A stretch of 61,277 nt of DNA from an uncultured Gammaproteobacteria bacterium (GTDB lineage: Bacteria > Patescibacteriota > Patescibacteriia > Patescibacteriales > UBA12465), in NCBI GenBank assembly GCA_964587195.1, contig CAZPKN010000003.1:1-61277 (forward strand). Reading direction: 5' to 3'. The notes under the pieces are model-generated. The model made no database searches and was not told the DNA's origin. It was given only the letters and a program-made list of their open reading frames with translations. The translations under genes were made by a program, and so were the position numbers. Below, piece after piece: positions 39,995 to 59,823 of this stretch (position 1 is its first letter; each line of letters begins with the position of its first letter).

Positions 39995-40032
39995 ACAAGA
40001 GCGGGAACTATGTTTATTTTACAAAGGATAAT

Positions 40033-40993: not shown

Positions 40994-41020
40994 ATATTTT
41001 TATCTAATATTCGTAGTGAC

Positions 41021-41368: not shown

Positions 41369-41665
41369 ATGACAATATCAGTCAAATCAAATTGGACAGG
41401 TTCAGAAAATACTTCTGATCTTGTTAGAAAACAGATTGCCGAACGTTGGGGTGAAGATGAAGCCAAACGTTATAATCCGTTTGTTAATTGCTTCACTTTC
41501 AACGGCTGGCTCAAAAACGGCTATGTCGTTCGTAAGGACGAAAAGGCACTCAAGTCTTTCATCATCGTTGAAAAGAAAGACAAGAAAACTGGAGCCGTTA
41601 TTGAGAGACGGCCGAAAACGATTTACCTTTTCTATGAAAGGCAAGTCGAGCCTCAACAGGCTTAA
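41369..41665 (+). CDS. ArdC-N-like ssDNA-binding protein
   Basis: FTFNGWLKNGYVVRKDEKA...IYLFYERQVE resembles the ArdC N-terminal signature. Confidence 0.6.
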   Translation: MTISVKSNWTGSENTSDLVRKQIAERWGEDEAKRYNPFVNCFTFNGWLKNGYVVRKDEKALKSFIIVEKKDKKTGAVIERRPKTIYLFYERQVEPQQA

Positions 41666-41726
41666 ACAATTCAAGGAATCAATCCTTCGGGATTGGTTCC
41701 TTTTTTTGTATAGACAATTTAAAGAA

Positions 41727-42578: not shown

Positions 42579-42582
42579 ATAA

Positions 42583-42858
42583 TTATTCTCTTAAACCAGA
42601 ATTATTAATTAATATTTTTATAGCCATAATTGACCATAAGAAAGGATAAACTGAAAATATAAGACCAACTATTTGCCATAAGGTGTCTGTTGGAAAAATA
42701 AAATCTATCAGGCTAGACCACTGTCGAATCATTCCGAAGAAGATTGTAATGTTAGACCAGGGAATCAGGCTATTAACCGCTTGTCCGATAGCGTAAAGCA
42801 GCCCTGATATAAAAGAAGTGACTAAAACTACTTTGATAAATTGAATTATTGCATTCAT
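42583..42858 (-). CDS. pVI-like minor coat protein
   Basis: 91-aa hydrophobic protein between the pIII-like and pI-like genes. Confidence 0.7.
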   Translation of the reverse strand: MNAIIQFIKVVLVTSFISGLLYAIGQAVNSLIPWSNITIFFGMIRQWSSLIDFIFPTDTLWQIVGLIFSVYPFLWSIMAIKILINNSGLRE

Positions 42859-42862
42859 ATGT

Positions 42863-44650: not shown

Positions 44651-44804
44651 CTTTTTGGTTCGTTATTTCTCGCCAATTTTTATAAATTTCATCTAGCTTA
44701 AGCCGGTCGTGATAAAGCCTAGGCTCGGTAAAAGATTTATAGAATTGATAATTTAGATAAACGAGAATAACTATTAAAATCACGAGTAAAATATTGGTAA
44801 GCAT
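44640..44804 (-). CDS. 54-aa single-TM protein (not in ORF track)
   Basis: MLTNILLVILIVILVYLNYQFYKSFTEPRLYHDRLKLDEIYKNWREITNQKDEK*; overlaps the pIII start. Confidence 0.6.
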   Translation of the reverse strand: MLTNILLVILIVILVYLNYQFYKSFTEPRLYHDRLKLDEIYKNWREITNQKDEK

Positions 44805-44858
44805 AAAATTATTTTAAGAAGGGAGTTTTCGCCCCGCCGGTTAAAGCGGGGCGATAAA

Positions 44859-45107
44859 CTATTTGATCGTGCCCCTGATTTTCTTTACGCCCCACATAAT
44901 ACCCTTGATAATCAAAGTTAAAGTGATGACGGCGCCGAACACTCCGAGGATATAAGGGATAAACGCATAAGCGTTATCCTTTAATAAATCGGTGGTGCTA
45001 GCTAAAGAATTAGTCAGGTCCGGATCGGCGGCCGCATGAGCGAAATTAGTACTTAAACCAAGTGCGCCTATGAAAGCCATAAATCCGAGTCCAATCTTCT
45101 TAAACAT
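44859..45107 (-). CDS. Major coat protein (pVIII-like)
   Basis: Signal peptide ending AHA, acidic N-terminus, one TM helix, basic tail KKIRGTIK; SD-like GGGGGTG 6 nt before ATG 45107. Confidence 0.85.
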   Translation of the reverse strand: MFKKIGLGFMAFIGALGLSTNFAHAAADPDLTNSLASTTDLLKDNAYAFIPYILGVFGAVITLTLIIKGIMWGVKKIRGTIK

Positions 45108-45130
45108 ATTTTTCACCCCCTTTCTAGTCT

Positions 45131-45232
45131 TTATTTATTTTTGTTAATAAAGAACGGAATAAGAATAAGACCGAGAAATCCAGCCCATAGGCACCATTTT
45201 AATAATTCATTTACTGCTTCAAATTCGGTCAT
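45131..45232 (-). CDS. 33-aa pIX/pVII-like minor coat protein (not in ORF track)
   Basis: MTEFEAVNELLKWCLWAGFLGLILIPFFINKNK*. Confidence 0.7.
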   Translation of the reverse strand: MTEFEAVNELLKWCLWAGFLGLILIPFFINKNK

Positions 45233-45236
45233 ATAA

Positions 45237-45335
45237 TTACAAACTATCTTTTATCTTTTTAAGCCCCCAAATTATCAAAAGGATGATAATTAAAGGCGTG
45301 TAGATCTGAACGAATTCAATGCCATTTATTTCCAT
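45237..45335 (-). CDS. 32-aa pVII/pIX-like minor coat protein (not in ORF track)
   Basis: MEINGIEFVQIYTPLIIILLIIWGLKKIKDSL*. Confidence 0.7.
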   Translation of the reverse strand: MEINGIEFVQIYTPLIIILLIIWGLKKIKDSL

Positions 45336-45493
45336 ATTTTTTTAGCTACATAAATTATGATAATTGCCCCTAAGGCTATTTTTACGAAGAAAAATAAGCC
45401 GGCAATTGGCAATACGAAAGTCGCGCTTAAATTAACAATATTGTCAGCGCTGTCTAAAACTTGGTAATGGAATAAAATTTCATTGAAATTCAT
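45326..45493 (-). CDS. 55-aa single-TM protein (not in ORF track)
   Basis: MNFNEILFHYQVLDSADNIVNLSATFVLPIAGLFFFVKIALGAIIIIYVAKKIWK*; overlaps the next start. Confidence 0.65.
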   Translation of the reverse strand: MNFNEILFHYQVLDSADNIVNLSATFVLPIAGLFFFVKIALGAIIIIYVAKKIWK

Positions 45494-45560
45494 ATAATAA
45501 TTAATTTAGAAATCGGAGCGGACTTACAGGATAAAAATATTTCCTTGCCGCCCCATATTT

Positions 45561-45857
45561 CTATTTCTTATCGTTTTCATTCTCAGACACGTAAATAGAA
45601 AGATAAGCTCTTTGCCTTACCCCATCGACATAGCTAAAAGGGAAGACATTAACCTCAAGCTCTACTTCTGAGCCGACTGCGCCAAAATCTCGGTCCAGTG
45701 GCACATTTACCTTTATTGGGTAAATACTGCCTAATGGGTCGATAAATAATGAGCGGACAACGCCGGGGACTCCGTCTTTACTGACGAAATCTTTTGTTTT
45801 ATCATCTTTGATTTTTCCTTTTAAAATAAACATAGTTTTATTGTTATTTTTATTCAT
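45561..45857 (-). CDS. pV-like ssDNA-binding protein
   Basis: 98-aa beta-rich protein from ATG 45857 (GGGGG upstream), first gene of the structural cassette; assignment mainly positional. Confidence 0.6.
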   Translation of the reverse strand: MNKNNNKTMFILKGKIKDDKTKDFVSKDGVPGVVRSLFIDPLGSIYPIKVNVPLDRDFGAVGSEVELEVNVFPFSYVDGVRQRAYLSIYVSENENDKK

Positions 45858-45951
45858 TGTTCTGCCCCCGACCTTTATCCGGCAGTTTACGCTCATATCA
45901 TAGATAAAGAGGGTTCTGAAAAGTTCCGGTACCATTTTTCAGAACAACAAA

Positions 45952-45977
45952 AAAAGACCTGTTTTACAGGTCTTTTT
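45952..45977. terminator. Bidirectional terminator, copy 1
   Basis: AAAAGACCTGT-TTT-ACAGGTCTTTT. Confidence 0.8.
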
Positions 45978-45997
45978 AGCGATATTTTTTCAGAACT

Positions 45998-46807
45998 TTA
46001 GAGGTATTTTTTGTTTAACTTAACTTTTCCTTTTCTTCCAGTATTGAAAATTAGGAAGTCTTTAATTTTTATAGCATCTTCAATTTTCTTATTAACTTCA
46101 AAGCAAATATTATGATATCTTTTCCAGCGCCTTCTGTTTTCCTTGTATTCATCAAAGTCATCAAACTCATCTTCGGCTATTTCTGAGTAAAAGAAATCAT
46201 CATCTAAATTATCTTTATTATCAATAAAGACATATTTTAGTAATTTATGGGCATTTCCAATTTTATCTTGCTTGCCAATAGACACTTTTTGCGCTTTTAT
46301 CCAGAGAATGCTTCTTTTTGGGTCAAAATAGGTTTTTTTATCATCCTCATCTTCGCTCAAAAAACTCTTTTGGTCTAATTGCTCAAAAATGTTGCTATTT
46401 ATTACCTTAAAAGACAGCTTAAGGGAGTCTTTAGAATAGGGTTTAGAGAAAAGACGGCATAAATCATCAAATTCTTGTTTATCAGCTATATTACAATCCT
46501 TAATCTTTTTCATCCGGCTATATATTATTTTAAGGTTTGAATAATATACCCAAAATTCATTAGTGTGAATAACCTCGCTTTTAACGTTAAGGAATTTATC
46601 CTCATTAAGCTCTTGGCCGGCTTCGCCCATTGCTTTGACGGTGTTATCAAAAATGCCTTGTAAAACCTCTTTAGTGACCGGGTCTTTATCGATGAGAGTA
46701 ATGTATTTATAGACGATAACAAAGCGCTGAAAAATGTTATTTTCTATACAAAAAAGCCTAGTTAATTCCAGCATTTTTTCTTTCACTGCTGAGCAATAGG
46801 CTTTCAT
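45998..46807 (-). CDS. Hypothetical protein with possible C-terminal winged helix
   Basis: 269 aa; the C-terminal YSEIAEDEF...INKK-like helix plus GKVKLNKKYL hairpin pattern suggests a wHTH (inference). Confidence 0.6.
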   Translation of the reverse strand: MKAYCSAVKEKMLELTRLFCIENNIFQRFVIVYKYITLIDKDPVTKEVLQGIFDNTVKAMGEAGQELNEDKFLNVKSEVIHTNEFWVYYSNLKIIYSRMKKIKDCNIADKQEFDDLCRLFSKPYSKDSLKLSFKVINSNIFEQLDQKSFLSEDEDDKKTYFDPKRSILWIKAQKVSIGKQDKIGNAHKLLKYVFIDNKDNLDDDFFYSEIAEDEFDDFDEYKENRRRWKRYHNICFEVNKKIEDAIKIKDFLIFNTGRKGKVKLNKKYL

Positions 46808-46982
46808 ATGATTTCTACTTTTAAAATATTCCCGCCTTTTGAGCAGGGAATATTTGCTATTCTATATAAATTTGTCAATAAGTCATGGTTTTAGGGAAAT
46901 TTTAGATTCATATTATTCTTATTATAAATTAAATTTAGAATCAAAACAAGTTGATAAATATTAGCCTATTTATGGACTTTTC

Positions 46983-47043
46983 AAATATTTACAAAATATT
47001 TACAAAATTAAAAATAATTGTTAAAGTAGAAGTAAAGTTTTAC
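46983..47043 (+). promoter_or_regulatory. Promoter/operator region of the XRE-glycosylation operon
   Basis: AAATATTTACA x2 (11-bp period), TTTACA-N17-TAAAGT with TGn, palindrome GTAAA-GT-TTTAC. Confidence 0.45.
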
Positions 47044-47064
47044 TAGAAAATAGTTAAACAAGAT

Positions 47065-47265
47065 ATGAAATCAAAAATCGGAGAGAATCTAAAAAAGTAT
47101 CGATTAGGTTGCGGTTTGTCACAGGAAGAATTAGCCTCTAAAGCTAATGTAACTTTTCATACTATTTCAAAAATAGAAACAGGTGCGACTAATGACCCAA
47201 GGGCCTTAACTCTTGAGAAGCTAGTTAAAGTTTTAGATATTAAAATTGATGATTTATTAAAATAA
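47065..47265 (+). CDS. XRE-family HTH repressor
   Basis: LKKYRLGCGLSQEELASKANVTFHTISKIETG pattern. Confidence 0.92.
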   Translation: MKSKIGENLKKYRLGCGLSQEELASKANVTFHTISKIETGATNDPRALTLEKLVKVLDIKIDDLLK

Positions 47266-47269
47266 AAAT

Positions 47270-48211
47270 ATGGATAATTTATATTTATCAGTTATTGTTC
47301 CTGTATATAATGAAGAGGGGGCAGCAGCTAATCTTTATCAGGAAATTTTAAATGTTTGCCAAAAAATTAATAAACCATTTGAAATTATTTTTGTTAACGA
47401 TGGTTCAACCGACAAAACTCTTGAAGTCTTAAAAACCCTATCACCGATTAAAATTGTTAATTTACGTGGCAATTTTGGACAAACAGCAGCCATGGATGCT
47501 GGAATTAAAGCCGCTTCCGGCTTCTATTTAGCCACTTTAGACGGTGACGGGCAAAATGATCCAGCTGACATTCCTAATCTAATAGCTGAACTGGAGAAAA
47601 ATGATTTAGATGTAGTTTCTGGTTGGAGAAAGAATAGAAAGGATACTTTTATGAAAAAGCTTTCTTCTAAATGTGCCGCTTATGTTAGAAAGCGCTTAAT
47701 TAACGATGGGATTCATGACTCAGGTTGTTCGCTTAAAGTTTATAAAAAAGAGTGTTTTAAGGGAGTAACGCTTTATGGCGAAATGCATCGTTTTATTCCG
47801 GCTGTTTTAAAAATTAAAGGCTTTAAAATTGGAGAGTTAGTAGTTAATCATCGTTCAAGGAAGACTGGTAGAACAAAATATAATTGGAAACGAGGAATAA
47901 AAGGAATTTTAGATATGTTTTCCGTTTGGTTCTGGAAAAAATATGCTAATCGCCCCCTACATTTATTTGGGGGATGGGGGGTTATATTGATCACGATTTC
48001 ATTTTTTTCTGGACTTTTAGCAATGTATAAAAAAATATTTTCAGGTCAAGATTTATCTGACACGGCTTTAACCGATTTATCAATGTTTGGGTTTTTTGTT
48101 GGCATAATGTTTTTTATTTTTGGTCTTTTAGCTGATATTCTTTCTAAAAACTATTATGCTACTCATAAAGAAGAGGCCTATAGTGTTAAAGAAGTAATTG
48201 ATAATAAGTAA
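47270..48211 (+). CDS. GT2 polyprenyl-phosphate glycosyltransferase (ArnC/DPM-like)
   Basis: VIVPVYNEE, VNDGSTD, LDGDGQNDP, GEMHRFIP motifs; two C-terminal TM helices. Confidence 0.92.
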   Translation: MDNLYLSVIVPVYNEEGAAANLYQEILNVCQKINKPFEIIFVNDGSTDKTLEVLKTLSPIKIVNLRGNFGQTAAMDAGIKAASGFYLATLDGDGQNDPADIPNLIAELEKNDLDVVSGWRKNRKDTFMKKLSSKCAAYVRKRLINDGIHDSGCSLKVYKKECFKGVTLYGEMHRFIPAVLKIKGFKIGELVVNHRSRKTGRTKYNWKRGIKGILDMFSVWFWKKYANRPLHLFGGWGVILITISFFSGLLAMYKKIFSGQDLSDTALTDLSMFGFFVGIMFFIFGLLADILSKNYYATHKEEAYSVKEVIDNK

Positions 48212-48212
48212 T

Positions 48213-49076
48213 ATGAAAAAGAATTTATTAATTGGTTTCATTGGTCAGGGATTCATTGGTAAAAACATGGCAGATGATTTTTCTGATCGTGGATATCAAG
48301 TTGTTCGCTACGATAAAAATCATAACTCCAGCAACAGAGATAAAATAAAAGAATGTGATTTTGTTTTTATAGCCGTACCGACTCCTTCAACCCCGGATGG
48401 TTTTGATGATAGTATTTTACAGGAAGTTCTGGCTTTAGTAGGAGAGGATAAAACTGCCATTATTAAATCAACGATTAAAATTGGCACTACGGAAAAATTA
48501 CAAAAATTATATCCTAACAAATATATTTTACATTCCCCAGAATTTTTGACAGAAAAAAACGCCGCTAATGATACTAAATTTCCCCCTCGAAATGTCATAG
48601 GTTTTACTGAAAAATCTAAAGATAAATCTCAGGATGTTTTAAATCTTTTACCACCAGCACAACATAATTTCATAGTTGAGAGTAAAGAGGCGGAATTAGT
48701 AAAATACATGGGCAATAATTTTTTATTTCTTAAGGTTATTTTTGCTAATTTAATTTATAGTCTAGCTGATAAAAAAGGTGTTGATTATCAAAAAGTTGCA
48801 GAAATTGTTGGCTTTGATCCAAGAATTGGACATAGTCATTTACAGATTAATCATCAAAGCGGTCACAGCAATAAAGCGGGAAGAGGAGCTGGTGGGCATT
48901 GTTTTATTAAAGATATGGCAGCTCTAGTAGAAATGTTTAAAGAAGATGATTTAAATAATAAAGCAGACCACTTGGCGGTCGAGGTTTTAGAAAAAGTGGT
49001 TGATTTTAATAAACAATTATTAATAGATAGCAATAAAGACTTAGATTTATTGCAAGGAGTATATGGAAATGAATAA
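48213..49076 (+). CDS. UDP-glucose/GDP-mannose dehydrogenase family protein, lacking the C-terminal domain
   Basis: GFIGQGFIG, IKSTI, HSPEFL, AELVKY and GAGGHCFIKD motifs; only ~287 aa. Confidence 0.85.
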   Translation: MKKNLLIGFIGQGFIGKNMADDFSDRGYQVVRYDKNHNSSNRDKIKECDFVFIAVPTPSTPDGFDDSILQEVLALVGEDKTAIIKSTIKIGTTEKLQKLYPNKYILHSPEFLTEKNAANDTKFPPRNVIGFTEKSKDKSQDVLNLLPPAQHNFIVESKEAELVKYMGNNFLFLKVIFANLIYSLADKKGVDYQKVAEIVGFDPRIGHSHLQINHQSGHSNKAGRGAGGHCFIKDMAALVEMFKEDDLNNKADHLAVEVLEKVVDFNKQLLIDSNKDLDLLQGVYGNE

Positions 49077-50037
49077 TAAAAAAACAATTTTAGTTACCGG
49101 TTCGGCTGGTTTTATCGGTTTTCACACGGCTAAAAGACTGTTGGAAGACGGCAATATTGTAATTGGTGCCGATAACTTCAACGACTACTATAATCCGAGC
49201 CTTAAGGAGGCTAGAAATGCTATTTTAGAGGGTTTTGAGGGCTATAAGCTATATCGGGGAGACCTTAGTGATGAGAACCTAGTAGAGCAGATTTTTACCG
49301 AAAATAAAATAGATCAAGTTTGCCATTTAGCCGCTCAAGCTGGTGTGCGCTATAGTTTAGAAAATCCTAGAGTTTATATTAAATCAAATATCAATGCTTT
49401 TCTTAATATCTTAGAAGCAGCTAGAAATTATAATATTAAAGATTTAGTCTATGCTTCTTCTAGTTCGGTTTATGGCAGTAATCAGAAAGTACCATTTTCA
49501 GTTAATGACTCAGTAGATAATCCAATTTCTTTATATGCAGCCACTAAAAAAGCCGATGAACTTATGGCTCATACGTACTCTCATTTATTTGATATAAATA
49601 CTACCGGTTTACGCTTTTTTACAGTTTTTGGTCCTTATGGTCGCCCTGATATGGCCCTTTTTTTATTTACCCACGCTATTGCAAATGAAGAAGAAATAAA
49701 AGTCTTTAATTTTGGTAAGATGAAACGAGACTTTACCTATATAGATGATATCGTTGATGGTGTATTATTAGCCCTAGAAAAAACTAATGGCTATCAAATA
49801 TTTAACTTAGGCAATAATAAACCAGTTGAGTTAGAATATTTTATAAGTTGTATAGAGAAAGAAATAGGGAAGAGTGCTAAGAAGAAATATATGGAACTAC
49901 AGCCAGGGGATGTTTTAGAAACATTCGCTGATATTGAACATACTAAAGAAGTATTAGGCTGGGAGCCAAAAACAAGCACCGAAGAAGCAATTAAAGCTTT
50001 TATTGGATGGTACAAAGAATACTATGGAGACAAATAA
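49063..50037 (+). CDS. NAD-dependent epimerase, UDP-glucuronate 4-epimerase-like
   Basis: TGSAGFIG, HLAAQAGVRYSLENP, YAATK and YGRPDMA motifs. Confidence 0.9.
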   Translation: MEMNNKKTILVTGSAGFIGFHTAKRLLEDGNIVIGADNFNDYYNPSLKEARNAILEGFEGYKLYRGDLSDENLVEQIFTENKIDQVCHLAAQAGVRYSLENPRVYIKSNINAFLNILEAARNYNIKDLVYASSSSVYGSNQKVPFSVNDSVDNPISLYAATKKADELMAHTYSHLFDINTTGLRFFTVFGPYGRPDMALFLFTHAIANEEEIKVFNFGKMKRDFTYIDDIVDGVLLALEKTNGYQIFNLGNNKPVELEYFISCIEKEIGKSAKKKYMELQPGDVLETFADIEHTKEVLGWEPKTSTEEAIKAFIGWYKEYYGDK

Positions 50038-51151
50038 GAAAAAAAGAATCTTAGTTTTAAATTACGAATTTCCGCCTTTGGGAGGAGGGGCAAGTCCGGT
50101 GAGCTACGAAATTGCAGAGCGTCTGTCAGAAACGGGTGATTTTGATATTGATGTGGTGACTATGGGCTATAAAGATTTACCAAAATATGAAGAAATAAAT
50201 AGTAATTTTAGAATACATAGAGTTAAATGTTTAAGAAATAAAAAAGAGATTTGTCATCCTTGGGAGCAGGCTAGTTATCTATTAAGTGGATATTTTAAAT
50301 GCAAACAATTATTAAAGAAAAGCAAATACGATATTTGTCATTGTCACTTTATTATTCCGACAGGAGTATTAGCAATAAAACTAAAAAATAAATTTGATTT
50401 ACCTTATATTATTACTAGTCATGGGAGCGATGTCTTGGGATATAATGCTAGATTTAAATTATTATATCCTTTTTTAGTAAAAACTTGGAAAAATATTTTA
50501 GATAATGCTAATAAAATAATATCTCCATCTAATTTTCTTAAGACAGAAATATTAAAAGTTTACCCACAATTTAATAATGAAAAAATAGAAGTGATTCCTA
50601 ACGGTTTTGATACTAGTAAATTTAAGCCACAAGAAAAGAAAAAATATATTTTTTCATCTGGCAGATTATTGGTTAACAAAGGTTTTCAATACTTAATTCA
50701 GGCAGTTTCTGATTTTAATATTGATTACGAGGTCCATATTGCTGGTGACGGACCAATGAGGGCAGAGCTACAAAAGTTAGCAGAAAAATCAAAGACAAAA
50801 ATAATTTTTCATGGCTGGCTTGATAATAACGGCCAAGAGTACAAAAATTTATTAGAGCAAGCCGCAATATACGTTTTAGCTTCAGAGAAAGAAAATGCTA
50901 GTATAGCTTTACTAGAAGCTATGAGTGCTGGTTGCACAGTAATCACAACAAATGTATCTGGATGCCCAGAAACAGTTGGAAATGCTGGATTATTAATAAA
51001 TCCTAGATATGCTAATGATTTAAAAATAAAATTGAATACCATTGTTAATGATGAAAATAAGTTAATTGAACTGCAGAAAAAAGCACAAGATAGAGTAAAA
51101 AATATTTACGACTGGAATATTGTTTTAAAAGAATTTATAAAAGTATTATGA
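50024..51151 (+). CDS. GT4 glycosyltransferase
   Basis: EFPPLGGGA, SHGSD, GDGP and ALLEAMSAG motifs. Confidence 0.9.
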   Translation: METNKKKRILVLNYEFPPLGGGASPVSYEIAERLSETGDFDIDVVTMGYKDLPKYEEINSNFRIHRVKCLRNKKEICHPWEQASYLLSGYFKCKQLLKKSKYDICHCHFIIPTGVLAIKLKNKFDLPYIITSHGSDVLGYNARFKLLYPFLVKTWKNILDNANKIISPSNFLKTEILKVYPQFNNEKIEVIPNGFDTSKFKPQEKKKYIFSSGRLLVNKGFQYLIQAVSDFNIDYEVHIAGDGPMRAELQKLAEKSKTKIIFHGWLDNNGQEYKNLLEQAAIYVLASEKENASIALLEAMSAGCTVITTNVSGCPETVGNAGLLINPRYANDLKIKLNTIVNDENKLIELQKKAQDRVKNIYDWNIVLKEFIKVL

Positions 51152-52245
51152 GCAAAGAAATAAAAATTTTACATATAATAGATTCCCTTGGACTTGGTGG
51201 CGCCCAAACTATTGTTAAAGGTATTTTTGAATATCAATTAAATAACCAAAATATATTTTTATTTGCATTAAGAAATAGAAATATTTTAATAGAAGTTAAG
51301 CACACTAATGTTCAGATCTTTAATTCATCTAAAAAATATTCTTTTAGACCTCTTTTTGCGTTAAAAGATCTAATTAAACGTGAAGAAATTACAATTTTAC
51401 ATTGCCATCTTTTTAAATCTCAGATTTTTGGCTTTCTTTTAAAAAAAATATGGTTTAAGAATGTGAAATTAATATTTCATGAACATGGTGAGATATTCCA
51501 AGGTTATATCACGTATAATTTATTTATGAGAGATGTCAAAAGTACTATAAATAAAATTATTGCCGTATCTAATGCCACAAAAGAAAAATTAATAGCTAAG
51601 GCCGGCATAGAAGAAAATAAGATAACCGTTTTATCAAATTTTGTTGATTTAAATAAATTTAATAGGAAAAATATTACTTGGAATATGGAAGGGGAAAGAG
51701 AAAAATTAGGTATTAAAAAGGGTGAATATGTAATAGGTTTTGTTGGCAGACTTGCAAAAGTTAAGGGTTGTGAGTATTTGTTGAAAGCGCTACCTTATTT
51801 AAACTTTTCCTATAAGGTTTTAATTGCTGGTGATGGCCCAGAAAGAAAAAAGCTTGAAAAATTGGCAGTAGAATTAAAAATTACTGAAAGAATTATATTT
51901 TTAGGTTATAGAAGTGATACGGTCTTTATTTATTCCTTGTTAGATGTTTTAATTATGCCCTCTTTGAGCGAGTCTTTCGGTTTGTCTGTTATTGAAGCAC
52001 AGTCTATGGGCACTCCAGTTATATCGTCTAATATTCCTGCATTAAATGAAATTATTATTAATAACGAAAACGGCTTGATGTTTGAGGTTAAAAAATCTCT
52101 AGATCTTTCTCTGAAGATAGAGCTGATGTATAAGGATGAAAAAGCTAGAAATAGGTTTACAAAAAATGGATTAGAAAGTGTCAAAAAGTATGATTTAGAA
52201 AATTATATTAATAATTTGAATAAAATTTATGAAGATATTAAATAA
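51148..52245 (+). CDS. GT4 glycosyltransferase
   Basis: LGLGGAQ, VGRL, GYRSD and ESFGLSVIEA motifs. Confidence 0.92.
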   Translation: MSKEIKILHIIDSLGLGGAQTIVKGIFEYQLNNQNIFLFALRNRNILIEVKHTNVQIFNSSKKYSFRPLFALKDLIKREEITILHCHLFKSQIFGFLLKKIWFKNVKLIFHEHGEIFQGYITYNLFMRDVKSTINKIIAVSNATKEKLIAKAGIEENKITVLSNFVDLNKFNRKNITWNMEGEREKLGIKKGEYVIGFVGRLAKVKGCEYLLKALPYLNFSYKVLIAGDGPERKKLEKLAVELKITERIIFLGYRSDTVFIYSLLDVLIMPSLSESFGLSVIEAQSMGTPVISSNIPALNEIIINNENGLMFEVKKSLDLSLKIELMYKDEKARNRFTKNGLESVKKYDLENYINNLNKIYEDIK

Positions 52246-53050
52246 TATTAAACATAATCAGATACAACACGACAAATTAGCTTCAACTTATAATATTAAA
52301 CATTCCGAAATTTATAATATATACGAACAAAGTAGGTTAAAAAAAAGTATAGATTTTTGTATCAAATCTGTAAATTCTAATTCTTCAGTAAAGGTTTTAG
52401 ATTTTGGCGCTGGAACTGGAAATCTTTCCCATATATTTCTGGAAAAAGGTTGCACTGTTACTGCCTGTGATGTATCGCAAAAGTCTCTAAATATTCTAAA
52501 AGATAAATTGCCTTCTAATAATCTTGATACTGTTTTATACAACGGTCTTAAATTGCCGTTTGAGGATAATACTTTTGATATTACTGCAACGTATTCAGTT
52601 TTACATCATATACCTAATTATATAAGTGCCGTAAAGGAAATGATTAGAGTCACAAAGAAAGGTGGATTGATTTGTATTGATCATGAAGCAAATGAAAATA
52701 AATGGAATCCATCAATTGAATTAATAGAGTATAATAATTTAACTAAACAAACTATATTTGAACATATTACAAAATTATTAATTGCCAAGGAATTATTAAC
52801 CTTTGATTTTATTAAAACTGTTTTTATCAAATTTTTTATAAATAAAAAATATCAAAGAGAAGGTGATATTCATGTTTGGAGGGATGATCATGTAGAATGG
52901 AAAAAGGTTAATGAGCTTATTAAAAAAGAAAAATGTGAGATTTTTAAGGAAGAAGATTATTTAATGTATAAACCCAAGGGAGGATTAGAAATATATGAAA
53001 AATATAGTAAGTTAACAAATGATACTAAATTAATTGTAATAAAGAAATGA
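52229..53050 (+). CDS. Class I SAM-dependent methyltransferase
   Basis: VLDFGAGTG, LPFEDNTFD and SVLHH motifs. Confidence 0.9.
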   Translation: MKILNNIKHNQIQHDKLASTYNIKHSEIYNIYEQSRLKKSIDFCIKSVNSNSSVKVLDFGAGTGNLSHIFLEKGCTVTACDVSQKSLNILKDKLPSNNLDTVLYNGLKLPFEDNTFDITATYSVLHHIPNYISAVKEMIRVTKKGGLICIDHEANENKWNPSIELIEYNNLTKQTIFEHITKLLIAKELLTFDFIKTVFIKFFINKKYQREGDIHVWRDDHVEWKKVNELIKKEKCEIFKEEDYLMYKPKGGLEIYEKYSKLTNDTKLIVIKK

Positions 53051-53988
53051 AAAAAATAATTATTACTTTAACTAAAACAATAATAGCAATATCGCTATTA
53101 GGATATTTGTTTTCACTAGTTGATTGGGATACTTTTTTAAGTGCAATTAAAAATGCTAATATTTTTTATATTTTAGTTTCTGCCTTTATGGCATATTTTG
53201 GTATTTATATTAGTATATTAAAATGGAGTATTTTTTTAAAAAATTATGGAATTGTTATTTCTAAATTAAAACTTTATTCTATTTATTCAATAAGCGCTTT
53301 TTTTAATAATTTTTTACCAACTACTGTAGGAGGTGATTTTTATAGAATTATTAGTTTAAATAAACAAATTCCAGTCAAGAAGAAAGAAATTATTTCATCT
53401 ATTATTTTAGAAAGAGGATTTGGTTTTTTGTCTTTATTCCCAATTAACTTTTTATTAGCACCTTTTTATTATAAATTTTTATTAAATAAGAGCTTTCTAT
53501 TAATTCAGGTGCTTATTGTAATAGGTTTTATTTCAATAATTTTTTTAATTTTTAAATATAATTTACTAATTAGATTAAAAAATAAACTAATAAAAAAAGA
53601 ATTTATTATATTAAACAAATTTCATAGCTTAGTTATTTCTATTTCAAATATAAAGAGTAAAAAAACGTTGATATACGGATTCTTGAACTCAATTGTTTTT
53701 TGTTTGACTATTGCTACTGCGAGATATATTTTATTTTTAGCATTCAATATTCAAGTAGATTTTTTTTATATATTGCTAGTTAGTTCTATAGCGCAAATTA
53801 TAGGAATACTTCCAATATCTCTTAACTCAATAGGTGTAAATGAAGGATTGAGCGTTTTTTTATTCAGTCTCGTTGGCGTTCCTATAGAAATATCTTTAGT
53901 TGTCGCATTAGTTGGAAGAGTATCTCTAATAGCGACTAGTTCTCTGGGGGGATTATTTTATTTTTTTGATAATAAAATTAAATTTTAA
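53047..53988 (+). CDS. Flippase-like membrane protein (LPG synthase TM / UPF0104 family)
   Basis: FFNNFLPTTVGGD and LPISLNSIGVNE motifs; multi-TM. Confidence 0.85.
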   Translation: MKKIIITLTKTIIAISLLGYLFSLVDWDTFLSAIKNANIFYILVSAFMAYFGIYISILKWSIFLKNYGIVISKLKLYSIYSISAFFNNFLPTTVGGDFYRIISLNKQIPVKKKEIISSIILERGFGFLSLFPINFLLAPFYYKFLLNKSFLLIQVLIVIGFISIIFLIFKYNLLIRLKNKLIKKEFIILNKFHSLVISISNIKSKKTLIYGFLNSIVFCLTIATARYILFLAFNIQVDFFYILLVSSIAQIIGILPISLNSIGVNEGLSVFLFSLVGVPIEISLVVALVGRVSLIATSSLGGLFYFFDNKIKF

Positions 53989-53999
53989 AAAATATTTGC

Positions 54000-56180
54000 T
54001 TAATTTAACCTTATTAACGTTAAAATAGGGTAAATATTTAATTTAGATTTTTGGTCATTAAATAAATTTTTCTTTGGATAAAATTGTTGAACTATTTCTC
54101 CATTTTCAATTATACTTCTTAGAACAGGATTAGAGTCTTTATGTTTATAGGAGTCATAGGTCAAAATAGCATATACATTTTTTTCTTTTAATAAAATATT
54201 GTCAAGATGATCATCATTCATTATGACAGGAGATCCGGTATAAATATCCCAATCTTGATTCTCTTCTATTATATATTTATTGTTATTCCATGCTATATAG
54301 TTCTTAAAAAAATCAATCTGATCTTCAGTGTAATTGTATTTTGGGTATTGAAAAGATCCATTAGAACTAATAATCTCTGTGTCCCTTAGATGATATTTAG
54401 CCTTATAAATTCTAGAAAAATTAAATAGTTTGCCAACCAAAGGATATTCTATAATAACCGTGCTTTCTTTAGGTATATATGCTACTAAATTATTCCACGG
54501 AACCGATGCTTCTATGGTCCACCCAAGATAGCCAGTTTTCATTAAATTTAAGTTATATAAATTGCTAATAATAAATACTATGAATATAAAATAAAATATT
54601 ATTTTAGATACTTGAAGTCTAACGAAATAAAAGCCATAAGCCATAATCGCTACCAACATAAAACTAATGGGAAATAGATATCTTACGTCAAGTATGTTTT
54701 TACCAAAAACGTAACCCAATAAAATTATTAAACCGACAATCCACGCCAATAATATTTTTAAAAATTTATCTTTTTTAAATAAATTAATAATTGTTATTAG
54801 TATAATAATTATTAATCCAATATTTTTTTGATAATAAAAAATGTTTATAATATTTTGCAGATGATTACTTAATTTAAATGTGATATTTCTTATAATAAAA
54901 TTATAAATTGAATTATCATAAAATATTATGTAAACTAGAAATAGAGATAGTATTAACAACAATGAAATAGTAATATAAAAAACATTTTTTCGGTCTCTAA
55001 TTAGTTTATTGAATACTAGCATTGAATAAAGAAGTATTAACGAGAAGAGTCCAATATTGTGTCCAATAAAGATATTTGAGAAAGTTATTAATAGAAACAG
55101 TAAAGAGCTGATTAAAAAATCCTTCAAATTATTAGATTCGTATATTTTTTTACCTATTAAAATGCCCGTTATTAGGATGATTGCAGAAATAACATATTCT
55201 CTCGCTATCATGGAATATAATATAAAATACCAATTAAGCCCAAATAAAAAAACCCCTAACAATGCTATTTTTTTTAGTTTAAATATATTTTTTATCAATA
55301 TATATATTAAAAAGGATAGTAATATTTTTAGTACTACATTAAAAAATCTTAATTGATAAAAAATATCATCAAAAATTCTATAAAAAAAAGACTCTATCAA
55401 TGAATATACTATATTTCGATTATATGCTATTCCCGTACTTGTTTCGCCATAAAATTTCTGGTGATCTATAATATTTGAAACAGATAAATTCGTGTAGGCC
55501 TCATCTATATGGAATGGTACTTTATTTATAAAATATAGAGTTAAAATTGAAGACATTATTATAATAATGAGTAACAAAAAACTATAAATCACGCCTTCCT
55601 TGTAAAAAAAACATACCATTTTTTTTATAATAGGAATCTTATTTATCCTTGGAAACTTATCGGCAAATTCAGTTTTTCTTTTATCCTCAGCTATTTGTTC
55701 AGTTATTTGTTCTCGGTCTATCTCTTTTTCCACCCTCTCTCTATTATGCCAAAAAGTTAAGCCACCACTTAAAATCGCTAGTACTGTTATAATAACTTGA
55801 TATTTATTTATCCAAGCTAAATCAATAAACTTTTCTAAATAACTAAATTGCCCCAGCGCTATTATCAGCAAAAGAAAAAGAAAAAGATAGGAAATAATAT
55901 CCCACCTTTTTTCAACAATGAAATTTAAAACATTAATTAATATCTTTTTTGTCTGACCGTGAAATGGCCATTTGATATTTAGAATAAAACCTTTTATTTT
56001 TATAATTATGTCCCTCTCAAAGTTAACAAAATAAAATATCGCTAGAAATATAGCTAGGGAATTAGTAATTACCGTAAAAGCATCTTGTATATTTTGGCCA
56101 ATATTAAATAGACAAAAAATAGCTACTATTAATAATAATATTGATATTCCGTATTGTTTTATAACTCTTATCATAATCAT
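54000..56180 (-). CDS. GT-C fold glycosyltransferase (ArnT/PMT-like) with extra N-terminal TM region
   Basis: FHIDEAY, FGLNWYFILYSMIAREY and RYLFP motifs; start coupled to the upstream stop (TAATG). Confidence 0.8.
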   Translation of the reverse strand: MIMIRVIKQYGISILLLIVAIFCLFNIGQNIQDAFTVITNSLAIFLAIFYFVNFERDIIIKIKGFILNIKWPFHGQTKKILINVLNFIVEKRWDIISYLFLFLLLIIALGQFSYLEKFIDLAWINKYQVIITVLAILSGGLTFWHNRERVEKEIDREQITEQIAEDKRKTEFADKFPRINKIPIIKKMVCFFYKEGVIYSFLLLIIIIMSSILTLYFINKVPFHIDEAYTNLSVSNIIDHQKFYGETSTGIAYNRNIVYSLIESFFYRIFDDIFYQLRFFNVVLKILLSFLIYILIKNIFKLKKIALLGVFLFGLNWYFILYSMIAREYVISAIILITGILIGKKIYESNNLKDFLISSLLFLLITFSNIFIGHNIGLFSLILLYSMLVFNKLIRDRKNVFYITISLLLILSLFLVYIIFYDNSIYNFIIRNITFKLSNHLQNIINIFYYQKNIGLIIIILITIINLFKKDKFLKILLAWIVGLIILLGYVFGKNILDVRYLFPISFMLVAIMAYGFYFVRLQVSKIIFYFIFIVFIISNLYNLNLMKTGYLGWTIEASVPWNNLVAYIPKESTVIIEYPLVGKLFNFSRIYKAKYHLRDTEIISSNGSFQYPKYNYTEDQIDFFKNYIAWNNNKYIIEENQDWDIYTGSPVIMNDDHLDNILLKEKNVYAILTYDSYKHKDSNPVLRSIIENGEIVQQFYPKKNLFNDQKSKLNIYPILTLIRLN

Positions 56181-57664
56181 TAAAAAGCAAATACCCAAAT
56201 AGGATCTTGTTGCCCGGTTTTATTATAAAAAATTAATTTTTGTTGATTAATTAAATCATTAATCTCTCTATCTAACCTAATTCCAGTCATATTGTCAACT
56301 ATAATATAGCCAGTCTTTGTTTCTGTTAACTCTTTTAACTGCTCCGCAGTTTTAATAGTAATAGCATTATTATAATATTCTCTTTCGGCCAACTTGCTTT
56401 TATTTAATTTGCGTCCATCTAAGCCAATTGCTAGCCAATAATCACTTCTGCCTAAATAGACTTTATCAAGTTGTGTAAAAGCAGAAACAATTACCTTATC
56501 TTCGCTCCAACCCTGATCTGCAATCGCTTGATAGGCACTTTTGAAATCTGGTTGAGGAGTATGAGGCTCTAAGTAATAATAAGTAATCGGTTTTAAAACA
56601 AAAGTATTGGTCTGTAAATAATTAGAAGCAGTAATTACTAAGATTAAAATACCTAAACCAAGTAGCCAGGAATATTTAAATTTTTTGCTTACTATATTAA
56701 TTACATAAGCTGTTAGGATAAATAGGATGGGTAGGATGAAAAATAAATAACGAAAATGTAAAGTATCAGCGCTAAAAGTTATTATTAAATAGGGAAGTAA
56801 ATAAGCAACAATTAGACCAATTTTGGTTTTTATGTTTTTTTCTTTTAAAACTATAATAACTGTCCCCGCTAAAGCCATAACTACAATTAGGGGTAAATAA
56901 TCAATTAGAAAATTCTGATAATTATGACCAATAAAAAAATTATTAGTGCTAGCTTTTCTAAAAAAGTCTAAAAATAATTTAACTAATAGAGAGATTATTC
57001 CTAAGCCGCTTAAAGCAATTACTATTAATTTGTTTTTGTCTTGAATTATTTTTCGCAACTCTTCTTTTTTAGTATTAAATAAATTAATGAGTAGTATAAG
57101 GGCATAAATACCAATTAATAAATAACCAAAATAATGGCTTAAAATAGCCGCTAAGGTAACTAGTACCAATAAGACTAGTTTTTTATAGGAAAATTTATTG
57201 AGCAGGGAATTAAAAAGGTAGAGAGCGAGAAGAAAGAAGAACTGTAGTTGGATATACATTCTCGCCTGCCTGCTCCAGGCTATTTCCCAATAAGATAAAG
57301 TGGTTAAAATAGCGGCGAAGAAGCCTACTTGTTTATTAAAATATTGACGCCCTAAGAAATAAATCATTAATATAACCCCGATTCCAAAAATGACTGCCGG
57401 TAATCTTGTGGCTATTGGATTAAAACCGCCTAGCTTAACCGCCCCAGTAATTAAATAATTATTAAGAAGATAATGAGGTCCATAAATTTTGTCTGAGTCA
57501 AGTATGGGGTAGCCTTTTTCTAGAGTGCTCAACACTGCATTTAAGGTATAGCCTTCGTCTATCCAGTAAGACTGTTGGTCAATTTTATAGAATCGCAAAA
57601 ACAAACCATAAATAATAATTATAGAAAAAAAAGAAAATATTAAAATTTTATGATATTTTTGCAT
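56180..57664 (-). CDS. GT-C fold glycosyltransferase (ArnT/PMT-like)
   Basis: SYWIDEGYT, RLPAVIFG, SRQARMY and RYLFF motifs; ~11 TM segments. Confidence 0.85.
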   Translation of the reverse strand: MQKYHKILIFSFFSIIIIYGLFLRFYKIDQQSYWIDEGYTLNAVLSTLEKGYPILDSDKIYGPHYLLNNYLITGAVKLGGFNPIATRLPAVIFGIGVILMIYFLGRQYFNKQVGFFAAILTTLSYWEIAWSRQARMYIQLQFFFLLALYLFNSLLNKFSYKKLVLLVLVTLAAILSHYFGYLLIGIYALILLINLFNTKKEELRKIIQDKNKLIVIALSGLGIISLLVKLFLDFFRKASTNNFFIGHNYQNFLIDYLPLIVVMALAGTVIIVLKEKNIKTKIGLIVAYLLPYLIITFSADTLHFRYLFFILPILFILTAYVINIVSKKFKYSWLLGLGILILVITASNYLQTNTFVLKPITYYYLEPHTPQPDFKSAYQAIADQGWSEDKVIVSAFTQLDKVYLGRSDYWLAIGLDGRKLNKSKLAEREYYNNAITIKTAEQLKELTETKTGYIIVDNMTGIRLDREINDLINQQKLIFYNKTGQQDPIWVFAF

Positions 57665-57871
57665 GTGGATAACTTTTTACTTATTAATATTTTATCATAT
57701 TTTTAGCCAAAATATAAGGGTATTTTAAATAATTTAAAAAATATGAAAAATAACCTTGTTTTTTATCATTTATAGTATTATAATAAATATATTAAATAGT
57801 AAATAGAGCTAATTTAATTTTGCTGTATTTGCTGCAAAAATTTTAAAATATTTTATAATTAATTTGAGTCT

Positions 57872-59467
57872 ATGAAAAAGTTTAAAAACTACTTTTCCAA
57901 AATCTTCAAAACTAAAGCGGTATTAGCAATGTTGATTATTGGTCTCGCCATCTCTCCGACGGTTTTTGCTCAGTTTGCTCGTCAAACTGGAGGTCCCGAT
58001 TGGGGCTATGGTTACGGTTACGGTTACGGCTATGGCTACGGCTTTGACGGTGGCACTATTGCTGGTTATCGTACAACGGGAGCTGCATCTTCAACTTATG
58101 CTTATGGCTACGGCTATGGTTATAAAGCTGATGGTGTGACATATGATGCAAGTAATGGGTTTGAAGTTACGCCAGCTACTATGAGTAGTTTGGTCCAAGC
58201 AGGTATTATGATTCCTAGCGGATCAAACCCTTCTAATACTAGTGCAATTACTTTCGCGCAACAAGTCGCTCTTGCACCAGTAACTGGAGTTTCTGTTGTT
58301 ATTCCGCAAGGGGTTGTTATGACATCCAATTCTGGAAATTTTGATATGGCTGATTTAGCAGCTGGGGCAGCGAGTTTAACCGGCTTATCTACTGATGTTG
58401 ATCTTGCTGGTTCGCTTTCGTTTGGTGTGCCTAGTGTAGGGTTAACACTTAATCCAGCTATTCAAATTTCTATCGCAGTTGATTCTGCTTTAGAAGGTAA
58501 AACATTAAAAATTTACAGAAAGGATGCCGGCGGTTCATGGGTTGAAAGTCCTTCCGGAACAGATGCAACTTGTACTGTAACTAGTGGTGTTTGTACTTTT
58601 AGTACTACTCATCTATCATCTTTTGGTGCCGGTGATGTTTATACTTGGAATTATGGATCATATGGGTCTTGTAGCGTTTCTTGTGGTGGAGGAACACAAA
58701 CCAGAACTGCTACTTGTAAAAATTCTAGCGCTGAAACCGTAGCTAACTCTTTCTGTTCTGGAACAGCAGTAACATCTCAATCTTGCAATACTCAAGCTTG
58801 TAGCTCTGGCGGAGGAGGAGGCGCAATTGTTAATAATTGTAGCTCTGTCGTTTATGCAGATTGGGGTTCTTGTGTTAATGGTTTTCAATTTAGATCAGTT
58901 TTAAGTCAAACTCCAGCTGGTTGTTCATTAACTGCTCAACAGCAAATAGATTCTTCTAGAGCCTGTGTCTTAGGCGAAGAGCCTATCGTTGTTACCCCTC
59001 CAGTTGTTACTCCAGGTAGTTCTGAAGCTAGAGCTGATGTAAAACAAGTGATGAATAATGAAAGATCATTAGTTTCTAAGATTAATACCGCTCTAACTAA
59101 TCGCTTAGCTGGTCGTATTTTGCTTCAGGTTGAAGAAAAAGGACAAGCTTGGTATATTGAGCCAGTTAGTAAGCAAAAACATTTCATGGGACGTCCAGCT
59201 GACGCCTTTGATATGATGCGTCGCTTTGGTCTTGGTATTAGTGAAGCTAATTTTTCTAAGTTCGAAAAATCAGGCGTTCCAGCTCGTTTTGCTGGTCGCA
59301 TATTCTTAAGAGTTAAAAGCAAAGGTGAAGCCTACTATATTAATCCAGTTGATATGAAAATGCATTACTTAGGTCGTCCAGCTGATGCCTTTAACTTAAT
59401 GAGAAGTAAAGCTTTGGGAATTTCTAACGCAAATATCAGACAAATCCCAGTGGGTGAAGTTAAATAA
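57872..59467 (+). CDS. Secreted surface protein with (GY)n tracts, a TSP1 repeat and a duplicated C-terminal domain
   Basis: Signal peptide; WGYGYGYGYGYGYG; WNYGSYGSCSVSCGGGTQTRTATC; two copies of (RL/RF)AGRI(L/F)L.V..KG.A(W/Y)YI.PV. Confidence 0.85.
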   Translation: MKKFKNYFSKIFKTKAVLAMLIIGLAISPTVFAQFARQTGGPDWGYGYGYGYGYGYGFDGGTIAGYRTTGAASSTYAYGYGYGYKADGVTYDASNGFEVTPATMSSLVQAGIMIPSGSNPSNTSAITFAQQVALAPVTGVSVVIPQGVVMTSNSGNFDMADLAAGAASLTGLSTDVDLAGSLSFGVPSVGLTLNPAIQISIAVDSALEGKTLKIYRKDAGGSWVESPSGTDATCTVTSGVCTFSTTHLSSFGAGDVYTWNYGSYGSCSVSCGGGTQTRTATCKNSSAETVANSFCSGTAVTSQSCNTQACSSGGGGGAIVNNCSSVVYADWGSCVNGFQFRSVLSQTPAGCSLTAQQQIDSSRACVLGEEPIVVTPPVVTPGSSEARADVKQVMNNERSLVSKINTALTNRLAGRILLQVEEKGQAWYIEPVSKQKHFMGRPADAFDMMRRFGLGISEANFSKFEKSGVPARFAGRIFLRVKSKGEAYYINPVDMKMHYLGRPADAFNLMRSKALGISNANIRQIPVGEVK

Positions 59468-59491
59468 TCTAGTTATAAAATAGAATATTAC

Positions 59492-59518
59492 AAAAGACCT
59501 GTGTTTACAGGTCTTTTT
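59492..59518. terminator. Bidirectional terminator, copy 2
   Basis: AAAAGACCTGT-GTTT-ACAGGTCTTTT, differing from 45952-45976 by one loop base. Confidence 0.8.
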
Positions 59519-59579
59519 GTATATTAGAGTGTAGTTAAAAATATTATTATAATAGTGTTTAGGATTGAGGCCTTATATT

Positions 59580-59628
59580 TTAACTATTATTAGCCACACT
59601 AGTTCGAACTTTGTCCACGACCCCGAGC
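59580..59628 (-). other. Inferred attR P-arm encoding the alternative recombinase C-terminus
   Basis: Minus strand reads LGVVDKVRTSVANNS* in frame from the shared GAGC; contains GTTCGAA. Confidence 0.6.
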
Positions 59629-59667
59629 TAATAAAAAAATGGCTAATTTTAGCCATTTTTTTATTAG
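59628..59667. terminator. Long A/T-rich hairpin, probable original tRNA terminator (B' arm)
   Basis: CTAATAAAAAAATGGCTA-ATTT-TAGCCATTTTTTTATTAG, perfect 18-bp stem. Confidence 0.65.
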
Positions 59668-59670
59668 TTT

Positions 59671-59823
59671 GTGGGTAAGAATGAGAACCCTCGGGTTCGC
59701 ACTGCCGAGGATAGCGAGGAATCGCCAGCCTGCCTGCCGGTAGGCGGGCTTGCTGGCAGTTCCGAGCGGCGCAGGCAGAATAGGGCGGCTTTGCCGCCCT
59801 ATAATCCCACCCCGGGAGCCAAC
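59671..59823 (+). repeat. tRNA-Asn 3' fragment with a T loop interrupted by GC-rich hairpins
   Basis: GTGGGT / GGGTTCG ... AATCCCACCCCGGGAGCCAAC; includes the 20-nt palindromic unit at 59729-59748. Confidence 0.7.

Follow-up and report, generated by a model that had tools for sequence, protein, structure and literature searches.

Genomic islands and prophages reportedly integrate at the 3′ ends of tRNA genes, with the T loop as one sublocation (Williams, 2002), and cis-mobilizable elements (CIMEs) are integrase-less derivatives of such tRNA-integrating islands. Here we describe positions 59629-59823 of a 61,277-nt window, by which we mean the whole stretch of DNA analysed (contig C3 of genome G000; 879 kb, 43 contigs, 98% complete). 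This segment is one copy of a gene-less, GC-rich family of tRNA-tail cassettes of Patescibacteria, which is apparently undescribed: searches of the accessible literature by sequence and by topic found no description of it. Like tRNA-integrating islands and CIMEs, the cassettes are bracketed by a direct repeat of the tRNA 3′ end (T loop to gene end) with the tRNA regenerated, they accrete in tandem, and their displaced ends are reused as attachment sites. Unlike these elements, they measure only ~150-240 bp, are gene-free, have a conserved, covarying single-strand fold with an antisense arm, and in one genome follow every third tRNA gene on average; in a search that was not exhaustive, no autonomous parent with the same ends was found in the at least 21 listed metagenome loci, the genus or IMG/VR. 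The cassette is best filed as a new gene-less form of integrative DNA that targets tRNA genes, whose design, self-complementary and specific to each tRNA, is unexplained.

Three other groups of described elements share part of this design. In integron attC sites and CTX-phage attP(+), a strand-specific fold likewise rebuilds a target-like duplex with an irregularity at the presumed crossover, a likeness of fold geometry; unlike attC, which conserves structure only, the cassettes have a highly conserved core sequence, and they show neither a known IntI or XerCD link nor evidence of a single-stranded DNA (ssDNA) stage. With transfer-messenger RNA (tmRNA), viral tRNA-like structures and YrlA (bacterial Y-RNA-like) they share a T stem and acceptor 3′ strand with CCA, and in some subfamilies a full acceptor stem. 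In contrast to those RNAs, a 100-nt core takes the place of the T loop, the acceptor 5′ strand is missing from the window copy, and each cassette mimics its neighbouring tRNA, not one fixed tRNA; Rfam 15, with its tRNA, tmRNA, YrlA, ribozyme and riboswitch families, gave no relevant match for the window region and 18 related loci, either at gathering score or at E <= 10. A tmRNA or tRNA-like domain was rejected for the window copy on the grounds of its interrupted T loop and the missing CCCGGGA complement upstream, and a tRNA intron or split tRNA on the grounds of the terminator hairpin upstream and the complete tRNA that stood upstream before the island arrived. Finally, the cassettes are gene-less, GC-rich, hairpin-forming, multi-copy and patchy like repetitive extragenic palindromes, bacterial interspersed mosaic elements (REP/BIME) and repeats resembling miniature inverted-repeat transposable elements (MITEs), from which they differ by their strict position and orientation behind tRNA genes, their tRNA-specific ends and the compensatory changes that keep their helices across phyla.

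All cassettes lie between a tRNA gene and a displaced copy of the last 16-21 nt of that tRNA (T-loop position 58/59 to discriminator or CCA), and are composed of a hairpin of terminator type, an antisense arm directed at the T arm or 3′ half of the cognate tRNA, and a conserved multi-hairpin core. The hairpin follows the tRNA in all cassettes examined. The window contains only one tRNA gene, and the parts of its cassette are as follows:

37978..38052, plus strand: tRNA-Asn(GTT), host gene of the cassette (ARAGORN; Rfam tRNA model, 72.8 bits); bases from ~38051 are now supplied by the island
38034..38054, plus strand: the 21-nt repeat AATCCCACCCCGGGAGCCAAC in its proximal copy, which starts at A58 of the T loop and ends 2 nt beyond CCA; 100% identical to 59803-59823
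59629..59668, plus strand: 18-bp hairpin with A-run, hairpin and T-run, of bidirectional-terminator type; first part of the cassette, once directly behind the tRNA (from sequence)
59671..59676, plus strand: T5 arm GTGGGT, complementing the T-stem 3′ strand CCCAC of the displaced tail (sequence, alignment)
59685..59698, plus strand: P1 hairpin GAACCC-TC-GGGTTC (92.7% of cells paired; 2 pairs changed on both sides)
59702..59778, plus strand: conserved core, consisting of P2, invariant loop and P3 (alignment A2, covariance model R1)
59702-59706 paired with 59774-59778, plus strand: P2 (covariation)
59707-59718 and 59763-59773, plus strand: invariant loop strands GAGGATAGCGAG and CGAGCGGCGCA, respectively (alignment)
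59719-59729 paired with 59752-59762, plus strand: P3 (covariation)
59730..59751, plus strand: secondary insert at the P3 tip, a palindrome-derived hairpin (alignments); missing from minimal cassettes
59780..59802, plus strand: P4 hairpin ATAGGGCGGC-TTT-GCCGCCCTAT (89.6% paired; 4 pairs changed on both sides)
59803..59823, plus strand: the 3′ end of tRNA-Asn in its displaced copy (from A58 of the T loop through CCA, plus AC), right boundary of the cassette; 100% identity to 38034-38054

These parts agree largely with the original prediction, made from the sequence, of a tRNA 3′ half whose T loop is split by GC-rich hairpins. That wording is a fair description, although it captures one face of a wider architecture in which an antisense arm pairs with the displaced tail. 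The 18-bp hairpin and the exact 21-nt copy of the tRNA end with CCA are present as predicted, and both GTGGGT (59671) and GGGTTCG (59693) match the T arm of tRNA-Asn, GTGGGTTCGAATCCCAC. By simple arithmetic, an exact 21-mer repeat is expected by chance in 61 kb at ~3e-8. The segment 59629-59823 has a folding energy of -85.5 kcal/mol (z = -5.86 against shuffles), and the cassette (174 bp) contains no open reading frame and hence no integrase of its own.

Relatives beside other tRNA genes, which the prediction had proposed to look for, were found in G000 itself as well as in metagenomes. The same core occurs four times in G000, each time ending in the tail of a particular tRNA. On contig C18 it lies ~60 nt behind tRNA-Ser(GCT) and on C1 ~70 nt behind tRNA-Ser(CGA), each followed by the tail of that tRNA; the copy on C30 belongs to the tRNA-Gln(TTG) locus and ends in its tail (17/17 identical), and the window copy on C3, which ends in the tRNA-Asn tail, is now 21.6 kb from its tRNA. 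In a scan of all 44 tRNA genes of G000, in which the last 13-15 nt of each gene were sought again downstream of it, 14 had such a copy at a distance of 136-244 nt, and Asn raises the number to 15 of 44. The tRNAs concerned are Ser-CGA, Asp, Val-TAC, Gly-TCC, Ala-GGC, Gly-GCC, Ala-TGC, Glu-TTC, Ser-GGA, Ser-GCT, Trp, Gln-TTG and Cys, with the Gln-TTG locus seen again, truncated, on contig 4; the apparent tail copy of Pro-GGG is simply the next tRNA gene. The exact repeats comprise 16-21 nt and start at T-loop position 58/59, all tRNAs are intact, and the DNA between tRNA and tail copy has 43-60% GC compared to ~38% in the genome.

At least three subfamilies with different cores are present in G000. 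The subfamily of Asp and Ser-GGA contains the full complement of the acceptor 3′ strand (CGGAATGGA/TCCATTCCG and GCGGAGAGT/ACTCTCCGC), and at Ala-TGC, Ala-GGC and Cys a second cassette stands behind the first. At tRNA-Asp (G000:C1 ~24200-24730, minus strand) a 152-nt unit of tail, terminator and cassette is exactly duplicated in tandem and followed by a third tail copy. A 20-nt palindrome family, CCTGCCTGCCGGyAGGCrGG, is the source of the P3-tip insert at 59730-59751. In a motif search the palindrome CCTGCCTGCCGGCAGGCAGG and close variants fell into 21 positional bins, corresponding to ~15-20 distinct loci in G000; they were seen in the window (59730-59751 and 37703-37730) and on contigs C1, C2, C4, C6, C18 and C30, nearly all within tRNA-linked cassettes. 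Since their positions vary (hairpin tips, loop strands, the inside of a displaced tail), they represent a secondary mini-insertion. The cassettes also touch on annotation: a permuted tmRNA called by ARAGORN at G000:C2:10649-11271 overlaps tRNA-Gly(GCC) and adjoins its cassette, while the real tmRNA lies at 11178-11566, and the call is probably a false one triggered by the tRNA-like end of the cassette.

In the genus, the core was found in 10 of 69 genomes; six of these have true cassettes, some at the orthologous tRNA-Ser(GCT) locus, and the rest have a simpler related hairpin in 5′ untranslated regions (UTRs). Three of 150 other genomes, sampled evenly over the phylum, contain the core, and none of the 2.9 million viral contigs of IMG/VR does. 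Insertion is polymorphic: G077 and G085 have no cassette at the orthologous flank of tRNA-Ser(GCT), nor has G006 at its tRNA-Asn junction, although other islands occupy these sites. The pattern of the invariant core matches metagenome-assembled genomes (MAGs) labelled Falkow-, Kaiser-, Adler-, Kerfeld-, Portnoy-, Sacchari- and Peribacteria, and matches outside Patescibacteria mostly look like chance hits in GC-rich coding DNA. Among the metagenome matches listed (80 loci) at least 21 are real cassettes, at least 13 of which have a tRNA on the same strand within 400 nt upstream, in at least 11 cases at 66-84 nt. These upstream tRNAs are Tyr, Ser (several anticodons), Val, Leu, Arg, Gln and Lys, and all the listed tRNA-adjacent cassettes end in the tail of their own tRNA, with identity from T-loop 58/59 to the discriminator or CCA or a few bases beyond. 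Altogether, relatives of the cassette stand behind at least 12 kinds of tRNA in Patescibacteria metagenomes.

Some relatives of the core are found away from tRNA genes. The simpler core hairpin, AAGCGAGYGAG-stem-UUCCGAGCGAGCGC, lies in sense orientation in the 5′ UTRs of rpsM, nusG, efp and others (L106, L107, L293, L295, L105, L108, L112); it can form two tandem G.A pairs and is possibly a general leader motif of the lineage. In a Patescibacteria MAG (JBAZXG01; L040, L054, L074, L076, L086) the invariant core is contained in a dispersed repeat of ~170 nt that is not linked to tRNAs and has a MITE-like look, with five copies, sharp ends and TTTATT at both ends. Furthermore, the right ends of unrelated islands abut displaced tRNA tails before or instead of a cassette (L023, L159, L165, L258, L259, L126, L149), with ends of the type ...CAGTTCGGATATAG|TCCC..., ...ACGTTCCCACTACG|TCCC... 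and ...GAAGGACAGCCA|. The tRNA tails of this lineage are stacked integration sites.

Rather than copying the T-stem 5′ strand, the upstream arm corresponds to the T arm in reverse complement, with loop bases 59-60 included. For the locus L122, the arm AAGGGACTTGAACCCTT agrees with the reverse complement AAGGGACTCGAACCCTT at 16 of 17 positions, and behind tRNA-Ala(TGC) the arm CTAAGGGATTCGAAC is the reverse complement of GTTCGAATCCCTTAG throughout (15/15). The mean arm score was 7.5 with the cognate tRNA vs 6.46 with non-cognate tRNAs, a value that none of 5000 permutations reached, and a simpler run-length test of the cognate arm match gave p ~0.004. In the window copy, the 3′ strand of P1 together with G59699 mimics the T-stem 5′ strand plus TTCG, and the 5′ strand of P1 is antisense to it. 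Owing to this antisense arm, a single strand can fold back on itself and so restore the two halves of the T-arm duplex, in the form of P1 and of the closing helix T5/T3, which pairs the upstream arm (T5) with the 3′ strand of the T stem in the tail (T3). At position 57/58, exactly where the repeat starts, there is a mismatch and the core protrudes.

A covariance model (R1) was built, as the prediction had suggested. The alignment of the core (A2) comprised 25 sequences and a separate full-length alignment 16. Two helices flank the invariant internal loop CCGAGGAUAGYGAG ... UUCCGAGCGRCGCAGG in A2, and 91.5% of the P2/P3 cells were paired, compared to 74.6% in shuffles and 27-50% when the partners were slid; 60 cells were changed on both sides vs 16.6 in shuffles. 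In the 16-sequence alignment, the proportion of paired cells was 92.7% for P1, 100% for P2, 89.6% for P4 and 68.5% for the closing helix T5/T3, and 14 pairs were changed on both sides vs 7.2 in shuffles. Helices P1-P4 covary. Thus, of the stems proposed originally, covariation bears out GAACCC/GGGTTC (P1), GCCAGC/GCTGGC (part of P3) and ATAGGGCGGC/GCCGCCCTAT (P4); GCGA/TCGC has no such support as a stem, its bases belonging to GAGGATAGCGAG in the invariant internal loop and to the lowest part of P3, and the helix P2 (59702-59706/59774-59778) had been overlooked. G.U pairs exceed A.C pairs by 23 to 6, which identifies the tRNA-sense strand as the folded one. The invariant internal loop is a candidate binding site for a widely conserved factor. 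Its motif TAGCGA appears to resemble the CS-6 box of ssoA origins, a likeness that would suit a single-strand origin. A kink-turn bound by L7Ae was rejected for the loop (the non-bulged strand has CA, not GA, and G000 has no L7Ae gene), and comparison by eye gave no fit to hammerhead, twister or other ribozyme cores.

The window copy is separated from its tRNA by an island, the parts of which are listed here together with the adjoining frame:

38051..59628 (about), no strand: 21.6-kb serine-recombinase island, inserted after ...GGGAGC of tRNA-Asn (Pfam, homology, junction comparison)
38011-39690, minus strand: large serine recombinase of 559 aa, abutting the tRNA (Pfam)
40033-40821, minus strand: inovirus-type Rep (Pfam)
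41727-42578, minus strand: Zot(-like) protein (Pfam)
47270-59467: cargo of glycosyltransferases, UDP-glucose dehydrogenase, epimerase, methyltransferase and related genes (Pfam)
57872-59467: last gene of the cargo, 531 aa; it has an internal repeat of ~110 nt, and its product a thrombospondin type-1 repeat (PF19030, E = 3.6e-10)
59594..59628, plus strand: right junction of the island, the real attR, with P arm and core ...CCCCGAGC (homologous to the far-end junctions in G020 and G006)
60025-61277: frame open to the window edge, with a P-loop/NACHT-like NTPase region (weak Pfam match), just downstream of the displaced tail

The closest orthologues of the recombinase are 92% (G020, beside tRNA-Gln(TTG)) and 80% (G006, beside the 3′ half of tRNA-Asn) identical, and DNA homology to the G020 and G006 prophages is limited to 38027-43907 and 44630-47061. 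Window positions 59574-59631, GCCACACTAGTTCGAACTTTGTCCACGACCCCGAGC, have homologues at the far junctions of the G020 and G006 islands, where they abut CCCCGAGCC and native tRNA flank; these orthologous junctions have no hairpins. In the junction alignment the crossover falls at or after GAGC, which places the island at ~38051-59628 and attR at 59594-59628. The 21-nt repeat is not the attR of the island: the conserved arm lies 175 nt upstream of the repeat, and the same P arm precedes the paralogous cassette on contig 30. This contradicts one way in which the original prediction might have failed, namely that 59803-59823 is merely the phage attR. The pre-insertion site reads tRNA-Asn...GGGAGC|TAATAAAAAAATGG..., beginning with TAAT and followed by the hairpin and cassette. 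From this reconstruction, the tRNA was once directly followed by the 18-bp hairpin, the cassette and the tail, in the canonical layout. Before the island arrived the direct repeat had 17 nt; CAAC in the tRNA copy comes from the arm of the island, and the repeat now has 21 nt. The cassette thus stood behind tRNA-Asn first, and insertion of the 21.6-kb island then displaced it by 21.6 kb, so that the predicted small non-coding, tRNA-linked element is indeed distinct from the prophage and older. The recombinase frame enters the tRNA gene (stop at 38011; window 38011-38052), so that its final codons span the left junction and would be altered by excision. The further suggestion that such cassettes are landing pads for islands has one concrete case, on contig 30, where the displaced tail of the paralogous cassette contains a 1.2-kb remnant that shares its left end (CCAAC|GTAGATTAAGCGA) with the island and has GAGCCAAC on both sides. 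In this single example, a displaced tail served as a (secondary) attachment site.

How could such a cassette arise? We favour the reading, to which we give about an even chance, of a site-specific, non-autonomous insertion by which the end of the tRNA would be rebuilt. It would enter the tRNA gene at the T loop and supply a replacement 3′ end and a terminator, so that the tRNA would stay intact and the old end would be left behind. The arm may then mask, or pair with, the displaced tail. Folded as the tRNA-sense single strand, the arm would pair with this tail and the core would protrude where the repeat begins. A bolder version, which we put forward tentatively and consider somewhat doubtful, is that the cassettes are a new class of protein-less mobile elements for tRNA genes, in which a single strand (RNA or ssDNA) would rebuild the T-arm target as a self-templated attachment site, rewritten for each tRNA.

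Several observations weigh against an insertion of this kind. No recombinase is linked to the cassettes or covaries with them: G020 and G006, which have the closest serine-recombinase orthologues, are without the core, G015 has no recombinase of this kind in spite of its two cores, and the IS110 transposase (PF01548) is absent from G000, which is 98% complete. GIY-YIG minigenes occur in 3 of 6 core-bearing genomes vs 20 of 69 overall, with no clear association. Relatives of the core hairpin in housekeeping 5′ UTRs suggest that the core may be a general RNA motif recognised by the host and not a mobility signal. The closing helix T5/T3 is weak, and in the window copy its pairing GTGGG/CCCAC amounts to only 5 bp and is offset from P1 by the extra 6-nt segment AAGAAT; the acceptor 5′ strand is missing there, nothing upstream complements CCCGGGA, and there is no promoter-like site in 59400-60050. 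The reading also leaves unexplained how the arm comes to match each new tRNA.

Among possible helper enzymes, serine recombinases are found in 47 of 69 genomes of the genus irrespective of the core, and G000 has three tyrosine recombinases, none near a cassette. An IS110 bridge-RNA element was rejected for lack of a DEDD (IS110) transposase in G000, and TIGR-Tas, with its arrays of 36-nt guides and variable spacers, does not fit. Reverse transcriptase (RT) was not accepted as a helper either, its fragment being unclassified, below all cut-offs and 2.8 kb from the C18 cassette. The RT gene is split over contig ends (G000:C18:2-523 and C20:2-649), has weak similarity to group II and Drt2 RTs and adjoins a beta-CASP nuclease gene. 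The tail of the C18 cassette copies the non-CCA trailer (CGA) of the gene and is therefore not derived from mature tRNA, which also disposes of a retro-copy of mature tRNA (the idea of an 18-nt copy limited by m1A58).

The alternative that survives best is a functional non-coding RNA mimicking tRNA, which would be produced by read-through from the tRNA, be closed by its T arm and be processed by RNase P, RNase Z and the CCA enzyme into a tRNA-specific decoy or regulator. Such an RNA would account for a fold on the tRNA-sense strand with G.U pairs, for covariation in all helices, for the complete acceptor 3′ strand complement (and so a full acceptor stem) in the Asp/Ser(GGA) subfamily, for the CCA on several tails and for the sense orientation of the related hairpins in the rpsM, nusG and efp leaders. 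It is harder to reconcile with the patchy, strain-specific distribution in tandem and nested arrays, with tails that are decayed or interrupted (C18, L150, L171) or, as in C18, copied from a gene trailer, and with a terminator-type hairpin that separates tRNA and cassette where no promoter-like site was found; the window copy, moreover, is without an acceptor 5′ strand. On this balance, we consider a functional RNA possible but improbable.

A folded ssDNA attachment site or mini-replicon is less probable again, and we judge it unlikely. The arm and tail would rebuild the T-arm duplex, the core would act as a single-strand origin or protein site, and the cassettes might be satellites of ssDNA elements. 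The geometry is suggestive, since P1 and T5/T3 reproduce both halves of the T-arm duplex, mismatch and core protrude at 57/58 where the repeat starts, and the fold is strand-specific; G000 also hosts an inovirus-type (ssDNA) prophage. Yet the core has no match among the viral contigs, relatives of the prophage are in core-less genomes, dependence on Xer or IntI is not demonstrated, and tolerance of G.T cannot tell DNA from RNA.

Slightly more doubtful still is a homing passenger, in which small GIY-YIG nucleases riding on tRNAs would cut cassette-free loci, and the cassette would be copied in when these are repaired from an occupied locus. An 80-aa GIY-YIG gene (37745-37987; PF01541, E = 8.5e-16) lies between the promoter of the same tRNA-Asn and the tRNA itself, where the segment AATATTCCCGGG, made up of leader and the initial 7 nt of the tRNA, is present in duplicate (37681-37692 and 37973-37984) and the palindromes form a cluster (37693-37735). 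A second such gene abuts tRNA-Ser(TGA) (G000:C20:6820-7041), and the palindrome at the 5′ end of tRNA-Asn recurs inside cassettes. However, nuclease gene and cassette are only weakly associated in the genus, the palindrome is a secondary insert with variable positions that is missing from minimal cassettes, and homing would leave the tRNA-specific antisense arms at many tRNAs unexplained. Least of all, the 21-nt repeat could be the attR of the resident prophage and the GC-rich hairpins its attP arm, as repeat and tRNA bracket the island and the recombinase gene abuts the tRNA; this is highly improbable given the P arm at 59594-59628 with its hairpin-less homologues in G020 and G006, the same cassette 60-70 nt behind tRNA-Ser genes without an island, and the closest recombinase orthologues in core-less genomes.

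For the window itself, the limits of the island are corrected to 38051-59628, with attR at 59594-59628. More generally, the cassettes duplicate tRNA tails, add attachment sites for islands and confuse the annotation of tRNAs, tmRNAs and att sites. The tRNA-specific arm implies that target sequence is copied into the element, which known integrases and transposases do not explain; should the self-templated site prove true, one family could settle at a third of all tRNA genes in a reduced genome without harming them. If the reading as a non-autonomous insertion holds, the tRNA genes of these ultra-small bacteria would bear an uncatalogued layer of gene-less structured inserts, found here at 15 of 44 tRNA genes.

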